Shown: piece by piece, positions 13,905 to 51,030 of the stretch
How positions within the stretch are numbered: position 1 is the first letter of the stretch
Layout of the letters: each line of letters begins with the position of its first letter
NCBI RefSeq assembly: GCF_056712565.1
Contig: NZ_CM160072.1
Reading direction: 5' to 3' (one strand)
DNA length: 64,000 nt
Made by a program: the position numbers and the translations under genes
The notes under the pieces: model-generated
What the model saw: the letters and a program-made list of their open reading frames with translations, nothing else
The model's database searches: none
What the model was told of the DNA's origin: nothing

Positions 13905-14414
13905 ATGACGACAGTAATACTGAATCAGCCCGACGAACCGCAGGACGTACCGGGCGTGGTGATTCCCGCACCGGAGACGGGCGACGCAGTGATTAAAAAC
14001 ACGTTCTTTTTCCCTGATGTGGATCCGAAGCGGGTGCGCGAGCTGATGCGCCTTGAGCAGACGGTTTCCGATGCGCGCCTGCGCAACGCCATCAAGACCG
14101 GCATGGCGGAAACCAATGCGGAGCTTTACGACTACCGGCTGCGCCAGATTGCCGCAGGGTTTAAGACACTGGCCGACGTGCCTGACGCCGAGGAAATCGA
14201 CGGCGAGAATGTGCGCATTTTCCACTACCTCAGCGCCGTGACGGCGATGGCGACCGCCACCCTGTATGAGCGTTATCGCGGGGTTGAGGCCACCGGCAAG
14301 GGTGACAAAAAAGCCGACAGCGTCGAAACCACCATTGATGACCTGTGGCGGGATATGCGCTGGTCGGTCTCGCGCCTGCAGGATAAGCCGCGCTGCATCG
14401 TGGGTCAGCTCTGA
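13905..14414 (+). CDS. L: head completion/stabilisation protein (P2 gpL family)
   Basis: 169 aa as P2 L. Confidence 0.75.
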   Translation: MTTVILNQPDEPQDVPGVVIPAPETGDAVIKNTFFFPDVDPKRVRELMRLEQTVSDARLRNAIKTGMAETNAELYDYRLRQIAAGFKTLADVPDAEEIDGENVRIFHYLSAVTAMATATLYERYRGVEATGKGDKKADSVETTIDDLWRDMRWSVSRLQDKPRCIVGQL

Positions 14415-20109: not shown

Positions 20110-20710
20110 CCGGCTATTACCCGTTGGCTCGTCGCCGCTGGAGGTCGCCGCCGCCGCTGCGTTCTCTGAGATTCAGCGCGTGCCGGTACCGCTGCGCACC
20201 CTGTGGAACTGGCGCACCTGCCCGGTAAAGCTGCTGCCGTATCTGGCGTGGGCGCTGTCGGTCGACAGGTGGGATGAGAAATGGCCGGAGGCGACAAAGC
20301 GCAGCGTCTGCGCGTCCTCGTTTTTCGTCCATCAGCACAAAGGCACCATCAGCGCATTGCGTCGGGTCGTCGAGCCGCTCGGCTTTCTGATTGAGGTGCG
20401 CGAGTGGTGGCAACTCGACGAGGAGCCAGGCACATTCCGCCTCGTTGTTGGCGTCCTCGACAGCGGCATCACTGACGAAATGTATCAGGAGCTTGAGCGC
20501 CTGATTGAAGACGCCAAACCGGCAAGTCGCCACCTGACGGGGCTGGCTATCAGCCTGAGTGCAACCGGCGAGCTGTATGTCGGCGCGGGATGCTACGCCG
20601 GCGACGCGCTGACCGTTTACCCCTACACCCCCGAGGAAATTGTCGTCGGCGGTGAATATTACCCGGCCTCGGCCATCCATTTGATTGATAACCTGAGAGT
20701 GAACGCATGA
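20102..20710 (+). CDS. I: tail/baseplate protein I (P2 gpI family)
   Basis: 202 aa, position after J. Confidence 0.7.
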   Translation: MNDRLLPVGSSPLEVAAAAAFSEIQRVPVPLRTLWNWRTCPVKLLPYLAWALSVDRWDEKWPEATKRSVCASSFFVHQHKGTISALRRVVEPLGFLIEVREWWQLDEEPGTFRLVVGVLDSGITDEMYQELERLIEDAKPASRHLTGLAISLSATGELYVGAGCYAGDALTVYPYTPEEIVVGGEYYPASAIHLIDNLRVNA

Positions 20711-21732
20711 CCGCAAAATATTTTGCCATTCTGACCAATCAGGGCGCGGCGCGGCTGGCGAACGCGGCGACACTCGGTACCAAGCTCAACCTGACGCAGA
20801 TGGCGGTCGGTGATGCGAATGGTACGCTGCCGACCCCTGACCCGACGCAGACGAAGCTCATTAACCAGAAGCGCATCGCGCCGCTGAACCTGCTGACCGT
20901 TGACCCGGCCAATACCAGCCAGATTATCGCGGAACAGATTATTCCCGAGAATGAGGGCGGTTTCTGGATCCGTGAGATTGGTCTCTATGATGATGCCGGT
21001 GTGCTTATTGCCGTGGCGAACTGCCCGGAAACCTACAAACCACAACTGCAGGAGGGAAGCGGCCGCACGCAGACCATTCGCATGATTCTGATTGTGTCGA
21101 GCACGTCGGCTATTACTCTGAAAATCGACCCGTCGGTCGTGCTGGCAACGCGCCAGTATGTCGACGATAAGGTTATTGAGGTGAAAGCCTATGCCGATAA
21201 TCTGCTGGCCGCACACCTCGCCGCCGCGAATCCTCATCCGCAGTACCTGCAAGTCGCCGACATAGCGAAATATACGCCAGTAGGTGTGCCACTTCCTTTC
21301 CCGTCAGCAACGCCGCCGACAGGCTGGCTGAAATGCAACGGCGCGGCATTTGATAAGGCGAAATATCCGGGGCTGGCTGCAGTTTTTCCGTCTGGTTATT
21401 TGCCTGATTTACGCGGTGAGTTTATTCGCTGCTGGGATGATGGGCGCGGTATTGATTCAGGCCGCATGTTACTGAGCGCGCAGACGGGAATGCTGGAAAG
21501 GCACCGACACTTCATCGTCGCGAATACTGCATATGAGGAAACCGATGAATGGGATATTGGTGTCATTTATCGTTCTACATACGTGCAGGGACGCGGGCTT
21601 GATGCATCTTCGACTGGAGGTAGCTTGATTCCTACCCCGACCCTTCACTCTAAAGGTCGTGTAGGTAATACCGGCGGAGCTGAAACACGACCGCGTAACA
21701 TCGCATTTAATTACATCGTGAGGGCGGCATAA
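20707..21732 (+). CDS. H: tail fibre protein (P2 gpH-like, short form)
   Basis: 341 aa; C-terminal receptor-binding part shares long identical stretches with the silent fibre segment at 48185-48679. Confidence 0.75.
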   Translation: MTAKYFAILTNQGAARLANAATLGTKLNLTQMAVGDANGTLPTPDPTQTKLINQKRIAPLNLLTVDPANTSQIIAEQIIPENEGGFWIREIGLYDDAGVLIAVANCPETYKPQLQEGSGRTQTIRMILIVSSTSAITLKIDPSVVLATRQYVDDKVIEVKAYADNLLAAHLAAANPHPQYLQVADIAKYTPVGVPLPFPSATPPTGWLKCNGAAFDKAKYPGLAAVFPSGYLPDLRGEFIRCWDDGRGIDSGRMLLSAQTGMLERHRHFIVANTAYEETDEWDIGVIYRSTYVQGRGLDASSTGGSLIPTPTLHSKGRVGNTGGAETRPRNIAFNYIVRAA

Positions 21733-40561: not shown

Positions 40562-40924
40562 GGGGCTGATTCTGGATTCGACGGGATTTGCGAAACCCAA
40601 GGTGCATGCCGAGGGGCGGTTGGCCTCGTAAAAAGCCGCAAAAAATAGTCGCAAACGACGAAAACTACGCTTTAGCAGCTTAATAACCTGCTTAGAGCCC
40701 TCTCTCCCTAGCCTCCGCTCTTAGGACGGGGATCAAGAGAGGTCAAACCCAAAAGAGATCGCGTGGAAGCCCTGCCTGGGGTTGAAGCGTTAAAACTTAA
40801 TCAGGCTAGTTTGTTAGTGGCGTGTCCGTCCGCAGCTGGCAAGCGAATGTAAAGACTGACTAAGCATGTAGTACCGAGGATGTAGGAATTTCGGACGCGG
40901 GTTCAACTCCCGCCAGCTCCACCA
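40562..40924 (+). ncRNA. ssrA: tmRNA (transfer-messenger RNA)
   Basis: Starts GGGGCTGATTCTGGATTCGACGGG, contains tag ORF region (GCAAACGACGAAAACTACGCTTTAGCAGCTTAA), ends GGGTTCAACTCCCGCCAGCTCCACCA; 363 nt. Confidence 0.9.
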
Positions 40925-41361: not shown

Positions 41362-41452
41362 TAGACTGGCCCCCTGAATCTCCAGACAACCAATATCACT
41401 TATTTAAGTGATAGTCTTAATACTAGTTTTTAGACTAGTCATTGGAGAGCAG

Positions 41453-41818
41453 ATGATTGATGTCTTAGGACCGGAGAAACGCAGACGGCGTACCACACAG
41501 GAAAAGATCGCAATTGTTCAGCAGAGCTTTGAACCAGGGATGACGGTCTCCCTCGTTGCCCGGCAACATGGTGTAGCAGCCAGCCAGTTATTTCTCTGGC
41601 GTAAGCAATACCAGGAAGGAAGTCTTACTGCTGTCGCCGCCGGAGAACAGGTTGTTCCTGCCTCTGAACTTGCTGCCGCCATGAAGCAGATTAAAGAACT
41701 CCAGCGCCTGCTCGGCAAGAAAACGATGGAAAATGAACTCCTCAAAGAAGCCGTTGAATATGGACGGGCAAAAAAGTGGATAGCGCACGCGCCCTTATTG
41801 CCCGGGGATGGGGAGTAA
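41453..41818 (+). CDS. insC: IS2 OrfA (InsC, HTH transposase part)
   Basis: [56 protein letters not shown]... Confidence 0.85.
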
Positions 41819-42681
41819 GCTTAGTCAGCCGTTGTCTCCGGGTGTCGCGTGCGCAGTTGCACGTCATTCTCAGACGAACCGATGACTGGATGGATGGCCG
41901 CCGCAGTCGTCACACTGATGATACGGATGTGCTTCTCCGTATACACCATGTTATCGGAGAGCTGCCCACGTATGGTTATCGTCGGGTATGGGCGCTGCTT
42001 CGCAGACAGGCAGAACTTGATGGTATGCCTGCGATCAATGCCAAACGTGTTTACCGGATCATGCGCCAGAATGCGCTGTTGCTTGAGCGAAAACCTGCTG
42101 TACCGCCATCGAAACGGGCACATACAGGCAGAGTGGCTGTGAAAGAAAGTAATCAGCGATGGTGCTCTGACGGGTTCGAGTTCCGCTGTGATAACGGAGA
42201 AAAACTGCGAGTCACGTTCGCGCTGGACTGCTGTGACCGTGAGGCACTGCACTGGGCGGTCACTACGGGCGGCTTCAACAGTGAAACAGTACAGGACGTC
42301 ATGCTGGGAGCGGTGGAACGCCGCTTCGGCAACGAGCTTCCGGCGTCTCCAGTAGAGTGGCTGACGGATAATGGTTCATGCTACCGGGCTAATGAAACAC
42401 GGCAGTTTGCCCGGATGTTGGGGCTTGAACCGAAGAGCACGGCGGTGCGGAGTCCGGAGAGTAACGGCATAGCAGAGAGCTTCGTGAAAACGATAAAGCG
42501 TGACTACATCAGTGTCATGCCCAAACCAGACGGGTTAACGGCAGCAAAGAACCTTGCAGAGGCGTTCGAGCATTATAACGAATGGCATCCGCATAGTGCA
42601 CTGGGTTATCGCTCGCCACGGGAATATCTACGGCAGCAAGCCAGTAATGGGTTAAGTGATAACAGGTGTCTGGAAATATAG
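41776..42681 (+). CDS. insD: IS2 OrfB (InsD, DDE transposase catalytic part)
   Basis: 301 aa overlapping orfA in -1 frame, typical IS3-family arrangement. Confidence 0.85.
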
Positions 42682-42692
42682 GGGCAAATCCA

Positions 42693-42839: not shown

Positions 42840-43628
42840 ATGACAAATCTACAACTGGAAGAAAGATTTAGGGCGCTTGAGAAAGATTACGATGCGCTCA
42901 TTTCCACAAAATATACTGCGCAGAACGTTCTCACTCACACTATGGAAACCTATGTTGATTCTGGTAAATATAAAAACTGGATCGCCAGAGTGAAAAAGTT
43001 AATAGAGGACAGCTACGGAAAAGAGTCTGATTATTACAATGACTTCAATACTGTAAACAGCAGGTGGTCTTCTAATTACAATACACTGATCAAAAGTTAT
43101 AAACCGTTGTTTGATGCGGCGAGAGATGATCTTGCGCACTCTGCTGTCAGTACTAATACTCCTCAAGAAGGTTCGCCGCTGAGCCTCGTACTTAATATTC
43201 TTAACAGGTTTCCGACCTTTGTTCGCCAGTTAAAGAGGCGGTACAACGGCCGTGCGCCGCTTGAAGTTAATGATGAGTATGACGTACAGGATTTGATTTA
43301 TGCACTGCTGACGCTTCATTTTAATGATATTAGGGCGGAAGAGTATACCCCCAGCTTTGCGGGCGCGGCCTCAAGACAGGACTTTCTTTTGAAAAAAGAG
43401 AAAATTGTGATAGAGGTGAAGAAAACCCGTGAATCTCTGGGAGCGGGTAAAGTTGGTGGAGAGTTGCTTATTGATATGGCGCGCTACCGCGCTCACCAAG
43501 ACTGCGATACGTTGATCTTGTTTGTATATGACCCGGATTGCTACATAAATAATCCTTTGGGCGTGAAAACCGATCTGGAATCTAAAGACGCGGAAGGAAA
43601 AGTGAAGGTTGTTATTGCGCAGTTCTGA
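42840..43628 (+). CDS. hypothetical protein with putative PD-(D/E)xK nuclease core in C-terminal half
   Basis: 262 aa; candidate motifs E-YDVQDLIYALL, RQDFLL and IVIEVKK (D...ExK); helical N-terminal half; motif-level call only. Confidence 0.55.
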   Translation: MTNLQLEERFRALEKDYDALISTKYTAQNVLTHTMETYVDSGKYKNWIARVKKLIEDSYGKESDYYNDFNTVNSRWSSNYNTLIKSYKPLFDAARDDLAHSAVSTNTPQEGSPLSLVLNILNRFPTFVRQLKRRYNGRAPLEVNDEYDVQDLIYALLTLHFNDIRAEEYTPSFAGAASRQDFLLKKEKIVIEVKKTRESLGAGKVGGELLIDMARYRAHQDCDTLILFVYDPDCYINNPLGVKTDLESKDAEGKVKVVIAQF

Positions 43629-43715
43629 CACGCTTAAGTGTCACCTTACAGGATTAGGTTTGCGGCCGTGCCAGCAGGACGAGCATGAAAAAGGCCGCTG
43701 GCACGGCCGGATTTG

Positions 43716-44009
43716 TCATCTTTGCCAGGTCAAATCAAAATCTACGTGAAAATCCGCAGGCTTAAGCTCGCAACTGCCACCACGCCCAATTAACGACGTT
43801 ATGTTTACAACGTTTGAACCTGTTGAGATGGCAAGTTGAGTGTCATCTGTAAACGTGATGATTAGCATTTCAGTCTGATGAACCTGTACTCCAGTTTTCT
43901 GAAAACCAATCTGGACAGATTTCACCGTTTTCCCAACCATTTCACGGGCTTGATTGATAGAGTAATTAGCTTCAACTTGTAGGTCATTCCTGAACTTGGG
44001 TAGTGTCAT
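43716..44009 (-). CDS. hypothetical small protein (97 aa), downstream of GIY-YIG gene on same strand
   Basis: ORF convergent with 42840-43628; 12-bp inverted repeat GGCCGTGCCAGC/GCTGGCACGGCC at 43664-43708 between them. Confidence 0.45.
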   Translation of the reverse strand: MTLPKFRNDLQVEANYSINQAREMVGKTVKSVQIGFQKTGVQVHQTEMLIITFTDDTQLAISTGSNVVNITSLIGRGGSCELKPADFHVDFDLTWQR

Positions 44010-44219
44010 TTTACATCCTCTTTAGTGAAGTTTTCGCTATTTAAATCAGCAGCATTCCTTTTAAATCACTGGCATGTCAGCAGTGGATAGTCTGAGTGTA
44101 ACGTCCAGTGAGGGGAATAAATATTGGTCAGACTTTGCACAAAAGAGCCAACTATCGCGGGCTCTCTCTCATCATGTGCGAAAATTGACCACAATATGAA
44201 ATCCAGTTCCATTCCGAAA

Positions 44220-45044
<825 letters not shown>

Positions 45045-45140
45045 TCAATTGACAACTTATAATCCCTACTAGTTAGCATTATGATTTCCAGAGTGAGGAA
45101 TATAAAAATCTCTGTTTCTGGCACATAACAGCCCTTAAGA

Positions 45141-45200
45141 TCGTAGCTCGCCATCATGGGGTGTCGGGGGGCGGAGGTTCAAATCCTCTCGTGCCGACCA
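45141..45200 (+). other. tRNA-Pro 3' fragment (about 60 nt, anticodon-stem to CCA end), att-like remnant, not a complete tRNA
   Basis: catggggtgtcggggggcggaggttcaaatcctctcgtgccgacca matches recalled proL 3' 46 nt with one mismatch; 5' acceptor/D-arm region diverged. Confidence 0.6.
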
Positions 45201-45213
45201 AAAATCCCTTAAG

Positions 45214-45241
45214 AACCAGCCTATTATGGCTGGTTTTTTTA
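45214..45241 (+). terminator. intrinsic terminator following the tRNA-Pro fragment
   Basis: AACCAGCC-tattat-GGCTGGTT followed by TTTTTTT. Confidence 0.6.
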
Positions 45242-45441
45242 TGATTGTTTTTTATGCGGAGAAATACCGGGGAATAATTGGGGTAAAACACCTTTAGGCT
45301 ATTCACTTAGCCTACCACCATCAAAATCTTTCCGAATGTATCCATCTCTTTTTTCTTATGCAGCTAAAACGAAGTCTTGATACTGTTTATTTACACAGAT
45401 AAGAATAATACTGTCTACAAACGCAGTACAAAAGAAGTGTT

Positions 45442-45620
45442 ATGCGTATTGAGATCTCCATAGCCAAAGACAAAATGACCAAATGCCAAACGGCGCTGTG
45501 GACGCGTTAAAGGAAGAATTAACCCAACACATTGGCAAGCGTTATGACGATGTGGAGATGATCGTAAAAGCCACCAGCAACGATAGTTTTTCAGTTAGAC
45601 ATACTGCAGATAAAGATTGA
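45442..45620 (+). pseudogene. DinI-like small gene with apparent frameshift (two overlapping short frames)
   Basis: [14 protein letters not shown] (frame 1, stop 45508-45510) continues in another frame as [37 protein letters not shown]; resembles DinI N-terminus from memory. Confidence 0.35.
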
Positions 45621-46044
45621 GCTAAAACTTTCGTTCAGGAAACTCTGAATGATACCTGAGAGTCTACTGAAGAGTTGTTTGTTCACTAGTTAGCACGTAG
45701 GAAATCATTCAATACTCGCACTATCGGAAGTTCACCAGCCAGTCGTAGCACGTCCTTGCAAACGACGTGCCTACGGTTTCAATCACCTCTCACCATCAAT
45801 TCTATCAATAATAATTAAACAGCGCCTAGACAAAATAAATAACAACAAGTCAACAACCTCGACAGGATGCCGATGGGATGATGAAGAGATAAGAAAGAAT
45901 AACCAGTAAAGCCCTAAAACGTCAGCGTTCAGACGCGTTTTTTACTTAATCGGTAACAAATACGTTGTATCATAGCAAAATAAAATGATTGTTCTAAATC
46001 AGATTAACTCCTCACTTTTGTACAATGTCGCTTACAGGTATACC

Positions 46045-47934
46045 ATGAAATCCGAGACGCTAACTGTCCAACAACTTTTTCAAGACCGCCGACAATACTG
46101 TGTTCCATTCTATCAACGTGCCTATGTATGGACTCAGCAAGACCAGTGGTCAGCTCTACTGGAGGATATCCTAGAGAAAGTACAATCCCGGCTCTCGGGT
46201 ACAAAACCAACTCCCCATTTCCTTGGTGCGGTTGTACTGGAACCTCAATCAAAAAAAGGATTATTAGGTGTAGATTCCATACATATTATTGATGGTCAGC
46301 AACGATTGACCACTCTTCAATATGTTCTGGCATCCATCCGATTAGCATTACGTGCTACGGATCTTTCCAGCTTAGAGGCTCTCATTTCGCCTTGCCTGAA
46401 AAACTCAAACGAAGACACAATGCGAAATAAAGAAGTAGAACGCTTCAAACTGTGGCCAACTTTTCGGGATCAAACTCATTTTATTCAAAGTTTTAATGTT
46501 GAAAATATTGACGATCTCCGGGACGTATTCTCTGATAGTTTCACGCAGCATGGTACGTTGCGTAAGCATTTTAATCACCCGCCATCACTAGAAGCATTAT
46601 GTTTTTTTACTGAAGCCTTTATAAAATGGATTAAAATAGAAAACCACTCACCACAAGAAAATGCTGTAGCTCTAATTGAGGCTGTCTTAACAGATCTGAA
46701 ACTGGTAAGCATATTTCTCGAAGCTGAAGATGATGCCCAAATAATTTTTGAAACATTAAATGGGCGAGGGGCGGAACTTCATGCTACGGATCTTATTCGC
46801 AACTATATCTTTATGTGCGCTGAGCATGAAAATATTAATGCTATTGAATTATATGAAAATGAGTGGAAGAGCTTTGAAGATAAATACTGGTCGGAAAAAC
46901 AACGCCGTGGACGTATTAATAAACCACGCATGGAGTGGCTAGTACATGCGACATTGCAATCAGAAAGGCAACGTGAAATTGATCTGTCTCGCCTTTACAA
47001 TGAGTATCGTGATTATGTAAGTAAGGACTTGTCTTCACAACGAGCAGATCTGCAAGTAAAGCGCCTCAAACAATATGCATCACAATATAAAGAATTGGTT
47101 GATGGTTTTGGCACAACCCCCATCTCACACTTTGGATATCGCATCGCAGACTATGATGTGACGACACTTTATCCGCTTGCTTTGTTCATTTCGATAGCTA
47201 ACATCGCTGATGATGAGAAAGCAGCCATGTATAATGATCTTGTCTCCTACGTAGTACGAAGAGCCGTATGTGGCCTGACGCCAAAGAATTACAACAATGT
47301 ATTTATGAATGTATTGCGGCACTTGGCTAAAACGGAAATTTCCAGTGTTGAGTTACGTAATATCCTCAATAACTTAAATGGCGAAGCCTCACGTTGGCCT
47401 GGTGACTCAGAATTTCTCAACGCTTGCATCAATGCTCCACTTTATCCTGGCAGGCTCGACGCACCGAAAATGCGCTCAATGTTAACGGAACTTGAAAGAG
47501 AACTTTGTCGCCAAGTAAAGACAGAAAAGCCTGATGTTCCAAATCTTTCTAATCTCGATATCGATCATCTTATGCCTCAAAGTTGGTATTCCTGTTGGCC
47601 TCTCGAAAATGGTCGTATGGTGACAAATTCAGATGCTACGGTATTGAACCAAATTGTTCTGTCTGGAACCGATCTTACCCCTGAACAGCTACTGGTAAGG
47701 AAACGGCAACAAGCGATATCTACTTTGGGAAATCTAACTTTGCTTAACCTTAGCGTAAACCGTTCTGTTCAGAATGCTGTATTTCTGAAAAAACGTGATG
47801 CTCTCATCGTCCACACCAATCTACGACTGAACATTCCACTTATAGTTAAGGATAAATGGGATGAGGATGAAATCCTGGAGCGGGGTAAAAAGTTGGGGGA
47901 AATTGCATTGAAAGTATGGCCAAAACACGATTAA
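46045..47934 (+). CDS. GmrSD-family type IV (modification-dependent) restriction endonuclease-like protein (DUF262 + DUF1524/HNH)
   Basis: N-terminal YCVPFYQRAYVW and DGQQR (DUF262/ParB-like); C-terminal DIDHLMPQSW (His-Me/HNH-like); start taken at ATG 46045. Confidence 0.7.
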   Translation: MKSETLTVQQLFQDRRQYCVPFYQRAYVWTQQDQWSALLEDILEKVQSRLSGTKPTPHFLGAVVLEPQSKKGLLGVDSIHIIDGQQRLTTLQYVLASIRLALRATDLSSLEALISPCLKNSNEDTMRNKEVERFKLWPTFRDQTHFIQSFNVENIDDLRDVFSDSFTQHGTLRKHFNHPPSLEALCFFTEAFIKWIKIENHSPQENAVALIEAVLTDLKLVSIFLEAEDDAQIIFETLNGRGAELHATDLIRNYIFMCAEHENINAIELYENEWKSFEDKYWSEKQRRGRINKPRMEWLVHATLQSERQREIDLSRLYNEYRDYVSKDLSSQRADLQVKRLKQYASQYKELVDGFGTTPISHFGYRIADYDVTTLYPLALFISIANIADDEKAAMYNDLVSYVVRRAVCGLTPKNYNNVFMNVLRHLAKTEISSVELRNILNNLNGEASRWPGDSEFLNACINAPLYPGRLDAPKMRSMLTELERELCRQVKTEKPDVPNLSNLDIDHLMPQSWYSCWPLENGRMVTNSDATVLNQIVLSGTDLTPEQLLVRKRQQAISTLGNLTLLNLSVNRSVQNAVFLKKRDALIVHTNLRLNIPLIVKDKWDEDEILERGKKLGEIALKVWPKHD

Positions 47935-48029
47935 TGCAATTAATAAAATGATTATAGTGGCCTTACATTAGTAAGGCCGCTACTCACTATTAAATACTTT
48001 AATTTGCATCAAGAACAGCAGTGTCAGCC

Positions 48030-48158
48030 CTAGGTCTCGGACTTTGTACCGCTTATCTTGTCTTCAAAAATCAGCTCGCATCCTGCACAGTTCAGCGCAT
48101 TACGTTGTAGATCTGTGTTCTGGTCATTTGTTGACACACGTACATAGCCAATAAGCAT
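48030..48158 (-). pseudogene. pin: truncated serine DNA invertase gene (Pin/Gin family), N-terminal 42 codons only
   Basis: MLIGYVRVSTNDQNTDLQRNALNCAGCELIFEDKISGTKSET then TAG; matches recalled Pin/Gin N-terminus incl. catalytic Ser region; RBS GGGAGA upstream. Confidence 0.7.
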
Positions 48159-48184
48159 GGTAGATCTCCCTGACAAAAGCAGGA

Positions 48185-48679
48185 ATGATGCCATTTGCTC
48201 GTTATTTCTGCATTTTCATAAACGTTGGTTTGGGAGAAGGCTCTGCATTACCTGTTGGTGTGCCTGTTCCATGGCCTTCAGCCACACCGCCAACAGGCTG
48301 GCTGAAATGCAACGGTGCGGCTTTTTCTGCTGAAGAATACCCGGAACTGGCAAAGGCTTATCCGACAAATAAATTGCCTGATTTACGTGGTGAGTTTATT
48401 CGTGGCTGGGATGATGGGCGCGGCGTTGATTCAAGGCGTGCGGTGCTGTCAACACAAGAGCCAACTGTAGGTACTTTTTATGTGGAGCTAGCTATCATCT
48501 CGGGAACTTTGAGCGGCTCAGGTGCTAAATTTACCGATTCAGTAGGGATTGGATCAACCAGTAGTAACATTACCGTTAGCAACGGTAATGACCAGTCCGT
48601 GTCGGGTACAGTGGCCGTTAACCCCGTCGATACCCGTCCACGCAACATTGCATTTAACTATATCGTGAGAGCAGCATAA
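48185..48679 (+). CDS. silent alternative tail-fibre C-terminal (variable) segment inside invertible region
   Basis: PSATPPTGWLKCNGAAF...TRPRNIAFNYIVRAA shared with P2-family H C-terminus (21280-21730); no own N-terminal domain. Confidence 0.6.
   Translation: MMPFARYFCIFINVGLGEGSALPVGVPVPWPSATPPTGWLKCNGAAFSAEEYPELAKAYPTNKLPDLRGEFIRGWDDGRGVDSRRAVLSTQEPTVGTFYVELAIISGTLSGSGAKFTDSVGIGSTSSNITVSNGNDQSVSGTVAVNPVDTRPRNIAFNYIVRAA
48213..48238. repeat. gix-like inversion crossover site (left boundary of invertible tail-fibre segment)
   Basis: TTTTCATAAACG-TT-GGTTTGGGAGAA; 15-bp core TTGGTTTGGGAGAAG is exact inverted repeat of 50139-50153; half-site resembles Gin/Pin site TTATCCAAAACC. Confidence 0.55.
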
Positions 48680-49281
48680 TGGATAAAGCAATATTAAATA
48701 GTGGACTTGTTGCTACAAAGGCAGGGGATATTACCGTTTATAACTATGATGGTGAAACTCGGGAATATATTTCCACTTCAAGTGAATATCTTGCCGTTGG
48801 TGTTGGTATCCCGGCATATTCCTGTCTGGATGCACCAGGTATACATAAGGCGGGTTATGCTATCTGTCGTTCTGTGAATTTAAATTCATGGGAATATGTG
48901 CCAGACCATCGCGGTGAAATCGTCTATAACACCGAAACGGGAGAATCAAAACAAATCACAGCACCGGGTGATTACCCCGAAAATACAACCACTATTGCCC
49001 CATTAACGCCATACGATAAATGGGATGGTGAGAAATGGGTGACCGATACTGAGGCACAGCATAGCGCCGCAGTAGACGCGGCAGAAGCACAGCGTCAGTC
49101 ACTGATTGATGCTGCAATGGCTTCCATCGGTCTGATTCAGCTGAAATTACAGGCCGGACGGAAGCTGATGCAGGCAGAAACAACCCGGCTTAACGCTGTG
49201 CTGGATTACATTGACGCGGTGACGGCAACAAATACCAGCACAGCGCCGGATGTCATCTGGCCTGAACTGCCGGAGGCGTAG
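48679..49281 (+). CDS. tail fibre assembly protein (alternative copy, inside invertible segment)
   Basis: N-terminus ATKAGDITVYNYDGETRE near-identical to gpG-like protein at 21732. Confidence 0.65.
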   Translation: MDKAILNSGLVATKAGDITVYNYDGETREYISTSSEYLAVGVGIPAYSCLDAPGIHKAGYAICRSVNLNSWEYVPDHRGEIVYNTETGESKQITAPGDYPENTTTIAPLTPYDKWDGEKWVTDTEAQHSAAVDAAEAQRQSLIDAAMASIGLIQLKLQAGRKLMQAETTRLNAVLDYIDAVTATNTSTAPDVIWPELPEA

Positions 49282-49696
49282 GCCATTCAATATCTGGCGC
49301 ACAGGAAGTATCGACCAGTTCCAGTGCGTCCAGATAATCCAGCCACGAATTATATTGCGCCAGTTCCTCGCCTTTCAGACGACCAATAGCAGCTTTGCCA
49401 GGCCACTGATGGGTATTGATGTAGGTATTGACTTCTGAAACCAAAGATATTTTTTTCATTTCAGCCGTCAACACCTCATCCTCTTTTGAAGGGGGTGGGG
49501 AATTAATCCATACTGGCCGTCCTGAACTGTCAGCGCCAATTTCTTTCCCTTCTGGATGCAGACCAAGAAATTGCTCATATGTTTCTCTGGTAATTTCAAT
49601 AACATCATCAGGAAGCGTTCCCGCATCCTCATATTCTGGAAACAATTCTTGCAGATAAAAACTTTTACTTCCGGGTGAAAAGAATACTGAGTTCAT
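49253..49696 (-). CDS. tail fibre assembly protein (expressed orientation)
   Basis: 147 aa with C-terminal ...LDALELVDTSCAPDIEWPTPP typical Tfa ending. Confidence 0.65.
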   Translation of the reverse strand: MNSVFFSPGSKSFYLQELFPEYEDAGTLPDDVIEITRETYEQFLGLHPEGKEIGADSSGRPVWINSPPPSKEDEVLTAEMKKISLVSEVNTYINTHQWPGKAAIGRLKGEELAQYNSWLDYLDALELVDTSCAPDIEWPTPPAVQAR

Positions 49697-49698
49697 TA

Positions 49699-50442
49699 TT
49701 ACCGTCCAATGATTAACGCTGAGACGCTGGTATCTGAAGGAAAGGCTGCATTCAGTGGTTTGTCGACTTTGAACACAATCGTATTATTCCCCCTGACAGC
49801 GGCAAAAGAACAAACCGCCGTCGCGTATGAACCTGTAATATTACTGGATACACCACCATAAGCTGTTGTTGATACCAGAGGGATAACGCCCAGCACCTTA
49901 TTAGGAAATACAAAGGGCAATGTGGCTGTGGCAATATAAGACTTATTAGAACCTGTGATGGCATAAGCATTATCAGTCATTCCATTCATCGCCACTGGGC
50001 CGCTTATACTTACAGTAACCATCTGAATGATTAGCCCGTCAGGTTGACGAATCACAAAATTTCCATTGCCACCAGTAACCGTCCAGAAAGACATATCAGG
50101 GATTTGGTTTTCCCCGTTGCCCACATTCCGTTTTGCCGCTTCTCCCAAACCAAGGTTTTCGAGAGCCGTTTTCACCGTGCCGTCCGATTTGATATCGCTA
50201 AACGGATTCTTGCGGCTTAACAGCAGCGCACGAAGCGCGGTAAGCAGCTGGTCGTGCCGCGCCTTCTCCAGACTGGCACCGGATGCCTCCACCACGCTGC
50301 AGAGTTCTTCCTGCAACATGTCAAAGTAGTCATCATCCAGATCGGTGGCAGGCGTGCCTGTCTGGGGGTTACCACGGGTAAAACCGTTCTTACCCGCGCC
50401 GAACTTATCCTTCTGCGCGGTTTTCGTGTCTATACGATGCAT
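49699..50442 (-). CDS. tail fibre protein (constant N-terminal part + current variable C-terminal part)
   Basis: 247 aa; gix-like site lies inside the gene at codons around [10 protein letters not shown]. Confidence 0.65.
50140..50165. repeat. gix-like inversion crossover site (right boundary, inside tail-fibre gene)
   Basis: TTCTCCCAAACC-AA-GGTTTTCGAGAG. Confidence 0.55.
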
Positions 50443-50445
50443 GGA

Positions 50446-51030
50446 TTACTCCGGATATTTAAAAATTACGTAGGTATGCGAAGGGCAGAGTTTGTTAAGC
50501 ACACATTCGACGACGGTGTCGCCCCAGATACGCAGCGCGGAATCACAGGGATCGCCACATGTCATCCAGGTGCTGTTGGTGGCGGCTGGCATGTTGACCT
50601 GCCAGTAATACCGCCATTCCGGCGCATTCACCGCGTCAGTACAGGCCGATGAGCAGGTGAACGTGCTTTTGTCGTATCGCGTGATGGTGGCGTCTGGTCT
50701 GCCCAGGGCAGCAAGCTGTGCAAGGTAAAAATCCTCATTGATGCCGCCCGCCAGGTTAACCTTCGCATCCAGTCGTTGCTGACGCTGGCGAAGGGTCTGT
50801 GTTCCTGCGGGAATACATTCATCCGGCAGGCCGCACAGACGCTCCCAGCGATTTATCAGTTCGGTGGTGGTGCGCGGATCCAGCTCCCGCATCAGGGCAT
50901 CCGCACGCTGATGAACGCGGGTTAATGACTGTGCCGCACCGGCAATCGCCGGATCGCTGGCTGACCACGCCGGACCGGGCGGCAGCAGTGCCGACAACAG
51001 ACGGATGTAATCATCGTTTGTCACGCCCAT
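50446..51030 (-). CDS. Mu gp48-like tail protein (DUF2313-like)
   Basis: 194 aa between baseplate J and tail fibre genes. Confidence 0.55.

Follow-up and report, generated by a model that had tools for sequence, protein, structure and literature searches.

Can a phage tail-fibre switch still be operated when its own invertase gene has been reduced to a stump? This question is raised by a locus at positions 48030-50442 of a 64,000-nucleotide stretch of DNA (contig NZ_CM160072.1 of assembly GCF_056712565.1; the whole stretch is called the window below). Here, a DNA segment with two alternative tail-fibre ends and their assembly genes lies in an e14-like prophage, next to a 42-codon fragment of the invertase gene pin. 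A preliminary description, made from the sequence, had taken the segment for a probably frozen host-range switch. We found that in the lineage carrying this locus the segment has been inverted at least three times since the invertase gene was truncated. The locus is probably an orphaned switch of the e14 P-segment type, flipped in trans by the invertases of other prophages.

The window contains exactly two copies of the 15-bp sequence TTGGTTTGGGAGAAG, one at 48225-48239 (+) and the other at 50139-50153 (-). In shuffled versions of the window this sequence had a mean of 0.17 matches, and two or more matches were found in 0 of 100 shuffles. The inverted repeat lengthens to 20 nucleotides with one mismatch. 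In a scan of the 64 kb with the consensus of 26-bp invertase sites, the only matches (with 0 and 1 mismatch; at least two matches in 0 of 100 shuffles) were the two sites given here, which delimit the following segment:

48213-48238: left 26-bp site (pixL-like), TTTTCATAAACG TT GGTTTGGGAGAA
50140-50165: right 26-bp site, inside the fibre gene, TTCTCCCAAACC AA GGTTTTCGAGAG
48225-50153: invertible segment, 1,929 bp as measured from one core dinucleotide to the other, its in-silico flip being matched in genomes

Both sites are imperfect dyads composed of 12-bp half-sites around a 2-bp core; they are inverted with respect to each other and have the core TT/AA in common. A third site, as in a shufflon-like arrangement, was sought in the same consensus scan of the 64-kb window and none was found. 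The segment and its immediate surroundings contain these fibre and assembly genes:

50442 to 49699, minus strand: tail-fibre gene as now assembled, 247 amino acids (aa)
49696 to 49253, minus strand: assembly/chaperone gene of the cassette joined in the window's orientation (phrog_188, E = 3e-55)
48185-48679, plus strand: alternative fibre C-terminal cassette of the tail-collar fibre type, silent in the window's orientation (phrog_523, E = 3e-69)
48679-49281, plus strand: tfaE-like assembly/chaperone gene of the alternative cassette (phrog_105, E = 3e-95), annotated as tfaE in relatives

The fibre gene is composed of a constant N-terminal part (50154-50442) and a variable part (49699-50138), with the right site falling at about codon 97 of the 247-aa gene. 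The phrog_1396 match covers residues 1-102, that is, the constant N-terminus of ~100 residues, and phrog_12714 matches residues 101-247. When 48225-50153 is flipped in silico, the alternative part is fused in frame and the fibre again has 247 aa. In each isomer a 247-aa fibre gene is thus followed by a tfa gene, and the protein forms annotated in relatives are WP_000554664.1 and WP_000554665.1. Both cassettes are intact in almost all carriers. The preliminary description had reported the exact 15-bp inverted repeat, with its second copy in the fibre gene, and had likened the arrangement to Mu G and e14 P; the repeat is where it was said to be, and the likeness is confirmed by the layout and by the 16-bp core TTGGTTTGGGAGAAGG, which is the published e14 repeat (PMC12529663).

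Whichever the orientation, an open reading frame (ORF) of 164 aa begins outside the left site and runs into the silent cassette (WP_001115587.1 and WP_001115559.1; 48185-48679 in the window and 20289-20780 in the flipped relative L011). The stfE gene of e14 has the same layout, and its chimeric form, StfE2, has been reported to block T2 adsorption. By analogy, the 164-aa ORF might have a role at the level of the host, such as blocking phage adsorption. A consensus scan for promoters and terminators around the stump (47850-48300) found nothing.

The remnant of the invertase gene and the gene beyond it are:

48158 to 48033, minus strand (feature 48030-48158): invertase (pin) stump, 42 codons, composed of 41 pin codons and one foreign codon, followed by a stop
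45985-47934, plus strand: type IV methyl-directed restriction enzyme gene (DUF262/GmrSD-like; PADLOC mREase_IV, full length, 1415 bits), annotated in relatives as DUF262 or GmrSD

The stump encodes MLIGYVRVSTNDQNTDLQRNALNCAGCELIFEDKISGTKSE-T-stop. Compared with the intact pinE of strain KE58 it has one mismatch up to about codon 41, after which the two sequences diverge fully. Of the catalytic domain, the stump retains only the active-site region at the N-terminus (MLIGYVRVST...); the DNA-binding domain is gone as well, and in relatives PGAP labels the same stretch as a pseudogene ('recombinase family protein, incomplete, missing C-terminus'). No further serine-recombinase motif was found across the 64-kb window. 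The preliminary description was thus right that the neighbouring invertase is cut to 42 codons, and, since the linked gene is only a stump, its view that inversion needs a trans-acting invertase is supported.

The breakpoint, AAAGTCCGAGA/CCTAGGG (the slash marks the junction), is identical in the window and in three other prophage contexts:

L018: another ssrA prophage, with different cassettes
L019: a prophage near paoD, with a different baseplate module
L020: a remnant at tRNA-Pro near yejM

The identity of the breakpoint in these contexts indicates one truncation event, after which the module moved between prophage backbones. To judge from the junction sequence, the type IV restriction gene arrived in a single ancestral event, in which it took the place of the 3' three quarters of pin. 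The gene that comes after pinE in intact e14-like relatives is mcrA. As a type IV enzyme gene is found at this place here, the prophage end beyond pin is apparently a site of defence-cargo exchange, and one such exchange appears to have clipped pin. The stump of VTB97022v (L020 4837-4959) differs at several positions, mostly third-codon ones as read from the alignment; this pattern would fit a swap of the 5' part with another functional pin allele rather than drift.

Whether the segment was inverted after this event was analysed in 5,426 complete Escherichia coli genomes, against which we searched the inverted isomer, constructed in silico with the DUF262/stump junction unchanged. Over 2,601 bp, the flipped isomer was matched with 100% identity and coverage by at least 60 genomes; UTI89, S88, NU14 and ATCC 11775, the type strain, are among them. 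Junction-specific queries detected 78 flipped genomes versus 23 in the window's orientation, all with the identical truncation junction, and 43 further, more-diverged carriers also have the junction. Since both orientations carry the same junction, inversion came after truncation.

The number of inversions was estimated from the flanks (about 33-40 kb) of 12 sequences, in which the segments had been set to one orientation and shared markers were compared in four-gamete style. A phylogeny from 42-kb flanks was rejected, as 0-5 private single-nucleotide polymorphisms (SNPs) per genome carry too little signal. GN06489, which has the window's orientation, and SF-166, which is flipped, have three derived SNPs in common, located -6.1 kb, +0.18 kb and +18 kb from the segment and thus flanking it on both sides. 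MS20655 (window's orientation) and N58 (flipped) have one SNP in common, and the window and APEC E16002 (flipped) have in common a 1-bp deletion in the baseplate J gene; the remaining compared genomes likewise hold both orientations. Because the marker-defined clades each mix both orientations, at least three inversions, and probably four, have occurred since the truncation. An A>G change common to GN06489 and SF-166 at position 14177 of L001, within the annotated ssrA (13999-14361), is a marker of their clade.

Both isomers are also found within cultures of a single strain. In a structural-variant screen of UTI89, Russell et al. 2019 (PMC6458436) observed two inversions in prophages, which were found in control cells too; only one of the two adjoined a phage invertase. 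Their Fig. S1 puts inversions at 0.9, 2.1 and 2.9 Mb, and the 2.9 Mb inversion was validated by polymerase chain reaction (PCR) in UTI89 control cultures (PMC6458436). The '2.9 Mb' primers map to positions 47421-47440 (restriction gene), 49073-49092 (tfaE, in the segment) and 50984-51003 (ymfQ) of the window, the first of them matching exactly after removal of one extra base from the sequence printed in Table S2. In UTI89 the locus lies at 2,905,683-2,908,283. Since the published primers map here, the segment with the same stump occurs in both orientations within UTI89 cultures. The 2.9 Mb inversion was published without an explanation, and the locus described here supplies one.

Which enzyme could act on the segment in trans? 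UTI89 encodes an intact 199-aa invertase (918974-919573; E = 1e-99 against Mu Gin, PDB 3UJ3) in a P2-like prophage next to serS, beside gix-like sites of its own, and the '0.9 Mb' inversion lies in the same prophage. This Gin-like invertase would be the obvious candidate helper for the orphan segment. That Gin, Cin, Pin and Hin can complement one another is established. The inversion of the e14 segment by PinQ is a precedent for such action in trans (PMC12529663). The preliminary description had regarded both isomers in the absence of any other invertase as evidence against its reading; in UTI89, where both isomers occur, an intact Gin-like invertase is encoded elsewhere in the genome.

In the genome collection, that exact P2-like prophage is found only in UTI89 and NU14, and similar P2-like regions with a recombinase are present in about 1,100 of the 5,426 genomes. 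Potential helpers were counted in chromosomes of sequence type 95 (ST95) with a query in which an ST95-specific anchor was joined to the 3' part of pinE. The number of extra pin/gin-like loci per ST95 chromosome ranged from 0 to 4. Such loci were found in 8 of 11 chromosomes with the rarer (the window's) orientation versus 13 of 37 with the other, which, at a Fisher p of 0.04 without phylogenetic correction, weakly supports their involvement. The one extra pin/gin-like locus of IHE3034 was not located by this search, in which only the best place is listed for each record. No prophage is present in its serS region, and its classical P2-like prophage, which lies between pflA and pflB, lacks an invertase. 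PinQ/PinR-like genes are unlikely as a general helper, as by blastn they are absent from most ST95 chromosomes, including those of UTI89 and IHE3034.

The retained part of pin contains one more feature that bears on the question:

48074-48137: putative Fis-dependent recombinational enhancer stretch, matched to Hin-family invertase genes by position

The Hin enhancer, a 65-bp element on the hin gene, is separated from hixL by about 100 bp; both its ends have a Fis site, and the motifs ATTTA and TAATG lie between these two sites (PMC3798978, PMC9368917). In the stump, two G-N13-C Fis-like cores (48123-48137 and 48074-48088) are centred 95.5 and 144.5 bp from the centre of the left site, and ATCTA and TAATG are found between them, at 48098-48112. 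This stretch is wholly within the retained ~124 bp of pin and is conserved in the intact Gin-like gene of UTI89. In the Gin and Cin systems, the enhancer is likewise inside the 5' end of the invertase gene. Because the putative enhancer lies within the retained stump, the truncation spared a likely cis element by about 40 bp.

The model that we propose is as follows. In one ancestral event, the type IV restriction gene would have entered and pin beyond codon 41 would have been lost, leaving both 26-bp sites, both fibre/chaperone cassettes and the first ~124 bp of pin with the putative enhancer. The resulting segment would be unable to invert itself and would still be a competent substrate. Gin/Pin-family serine invertases encoded elsewhere, for example in P2-like prophages, would bind the two sites and, assisted by Fis bound to the retained enhancer, carry out strand exchange at the AA/TT dinucleotide in their centre. 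Each flip would change which C-terminal fibre part and chaperone join the constant N-terminal part, so that two receptor-binding tips alternate and the host range may still be changed.

As an alternative to this model, we considered that the destruction of pin may have locked the segment for good, with the alternative cassette left as a decaying fossil. The truncated invertase is in line with such a frozen relic, and so are the chromosomes without a detectable pin/gin-like or pinQ-like gene, the broken cassettes of PA45B, the IS66-family element that splits the stump from the left site in IMT5155, and the baseplate J frameshift in the window's prophage; locking may indeed hold for individual strains. 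For the lineage it is contradicted by the same junction in both orientations (23 versus 78 genomes), by at least three independent flips distributed over three mixed clades, and by the PCR products of both orientations in UTI89 cultures (PMC6458436), and the cassettes are intact in almost all carriers. We therefore consider a frozen relic improbable, and the wording 'probably frozen' of the preliminary description is not supported at the lineage level. If the segment does flip, the inversions could also be attributed to rare events of RecA-dependent homologous recombination, in which the inverted repeats of 15-20 bp recombine without a site-specific recombinase. An exact repeat of 15 bp, or one of 20 bp with one mismatch, is available for this route, and in some of the mixed-orientation clades no candidate invertase was found on the chromosome. 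However, for RecA-dependent recombination to be efficient in E. coli, a minimum of ~25 bp is generally reported, and repeats of 15-20 bp fall short of it. In addition, the repeats are bona fide invertase sites with a core identical to that of e14, the inversion recurred at least three times in a lineage differing by 0-5 SNPs per about 40 kb, and flipping is frequent enough to be detected by PCR within a culture (PMC6458436), which together make the RecA route very improbable. The least probable account, to which we give hardly any credence, is that the segment was replaced from a related incoming phage by gene conversion via flanking homology, rather than inverted in place. The stump/DUF262 module and the cassettes are indeed mosaic across prophage backbones, and the mostly third-codon differences in the L020 stump fit recombination with another pin allele. 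Replacement does not, however, agree with flipped isomers that equal the in-silico inversion base for base (100% over 2,601 bp) or with shared flank markers as near as 0.18 kb to the right site, and it cannot account for both isomers in one UTI89 culture.

Several observations weigh against flipping in trans as well. The enhancer is assigned by positional homology only, and of its two Fis-like cores the second is rich in G+C. Of the three clades, two are defined by a single event each (a SNP in one and a 1-bp deletion in the other), and either event could have arisen twice. The Gin-like invertase, like every candidate enzyme, is one that we connect with the segment by inference. In the chromosomes of SF-166, GN06489, ATCC 11775 and PMV-1, no pinE/gin-like or pinQ-like gene was found by blastn, a search that did not cover plasmids and more distant recombinases; in such strains the helper would have to be plasmid-borne, have come with a transient phage, or have been lost in the meantime. 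The strain of the window is itself outside the genome collection and the evidence for flipping comes from its relatives, and the baseplate J frameshift argues against a working host-range function in the window itself. With these points taken into account, an orphaned e14 P-type switch operated by the invertases of other prophages is still the explanation that we hold to be probable.

A more far-reaching version, which we consider rather unlikely, is that the stump was kept for its enhancer, and that the restriction gene, stump and left site form an invertase-free switch cassette that spreads between backbones and borrows co-resident invertases. If this were true, the phase of a prophage's fibre would vary with the set of other prophages residing in the same cell. 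In general terms, a pseudogenised invertase does not equal a locked switch, and orphan segments can stay dynamic through cross-talk between prophages. This is relevant to the 'structural variants' reported in clinical E. coli genomes, as ST95 assemblies split 78 to 23 by the orientation of this segment. The novelty is modest, since trans-complementation has long been known, the stump was already annotated as a pseudogene and the UTI89 inversion had been published, albeit unexplained; with an explanation at hand, that inversion becomes open to a clean genetic test.

The locus is 100% identical to that of ST95-type E. coli genomes such as IHE3034 and APEC O1. The prophage adjoins ssrA and is e14-like, with an HK97-type head and a Mu-type baseplate. 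Its copy in IHE3034 looks complete, comprising integrase, repressor, replication, antitermination, lysis and terminase genes, an HK97-type head and a Mu-type tail and baseplate. Compared with IHE3034, the window has an extra 1,331-bp insertion sequence (IS) of the IS3 family, one SNP and a 1-bp deletion that frameshifts baseplate J; no match to this exact structure was found among the genomes of the collection. The neighbouring features are:

41362-42692: IS3-family element (IS2-sized), 1,331 bp, 437 bp downstream of ssrA (40562-40924), not in IHE3034
~42840-43628: Aga-type restriction endonuclease (REase)-like gene (PADLOC, E = 1e-26)
44220-45026: PD-T4-3 GIY-YIG gene (E = 9e-137)
~45442-45659: DinI-like pseudogene
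51021-52078, minus strand: baseplate J/gp47 gene with a 1-bp deletion near 51269, split into ORFs of 279 and 79 aa

A cluster of defence genes (42840-47934) thus lies between ssrA and the tail end of the prophage and closes with the type IV restriction gene. The IS3-family insertion was tried as a clade marker uniting the window with MS20673, SCU-116 and Eco_23-2678 and was rejected, as the identical copy in MS20673 lies about 110 bp away from the window's insertion point and represents a separate event. The deletion in baseplate J changes GCGCCACCGG to GCGCACCGG; it falls in a CC dinucleotide, not in a long homopolymer, and the same deletion is present in APEC E16002, where the gene is annotated as 'frameshifted'. 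Judging from this lesion, the prophage is probably tail-defective in both the window's strain and APEC E16002, and virion production is doubtful in the window because baseplate J is frameshifted.

Other lesions were observed in individual carriers. In IMT5155 the IS66-family element between the stump and the left site occupies L003 3332-5947, the cassettes of PA45B are frameshifted or truncated (L004 6289-8449), and in N66 (H41) an IS3 element interrupts the 2.6-kb locus. APEC E16002 has an IS1-bounded deletion of the lysis-to-early region (L012 40072-41001). At 920.4-930.6 kb of IHE3034 (L021 15456-25643), a satellite-like element of about 10 kb lies between yljB and clpS; it has genes for integrase, primase, capsid, head decoration and small terminase and is absent from UTI89.

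How does the locus compare with known invertible segments? The P segment of e14, a cryptic prophage of E. coli K-12, was reportedly characterised together with PinE by Plasterk and van de Putte in 1985. Its elements stand in the same order as here, namely pin, the left site, the alternative fibre part with tfaE, tfa with the variable part, and the right site in the fibre gene, and the 16-bp core is identical (PMC12529663). Intact full-size e14-like relatives, for example in KE58, are 94-95% identical over the locus. The differences from e14 are that pin is cut here at codon 41 and the 3' part of pinE, together with mcrA, has given way to the type IV restriction gene, that the segment has 1,929 bp versus 1,797 bp, and that it resides in a near full-length prophage instead of a 15-kb remnant. 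In addition, the prophage lies at ssrA, whereas e14 lies at icd, so the locus is not e14 in the strict sense.

The G segment of Mu with Gin and the C segment of P1 with Cin are alike in their 26-bp serine-invertase sites with 12-bp half-sites and a 2-bp core and in the exchange of the fibre C-terminus together with its chaperone; their enhancers lie within the 5' end of the invertase gene, the position of the putative one in our locus. Both systems differ in having an intact invertase of their own, another central dinucleotide and other outer half-sites. Kutsukake et al. in 2006 are said to have found that Fin of Fels-2 acts alongside Hin on the Salmonella H segment. In this case, as in that of PinQ of Qin acting on e14 (PMC12529663), a prophage invertase flips a segment elsewhere in the genome; those targets keep their own invertase, whereas the segment described here would depend wholly on foreign enzymes. 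Shufflons also provide alternative adhesin-like C-terminal ends by DNA inversion. They use the tyrosine recombinase Rci and several segments, whereas our locus has two sites of the serine-invertase type and no Rci, and hence is not a shufflon. With the Gin/Pin/Hin/Cin type the locus has in common the paired inverted sites, a site within the fibre ORF and the occurrence of both orientations in genomes; an intact serine invertase gene adjoining the segment was not found. Because this linked intact invertase, a defining feature of the type, is missing, we regard the locus as a member that has been orphaned and relies on trans-acting helpers.

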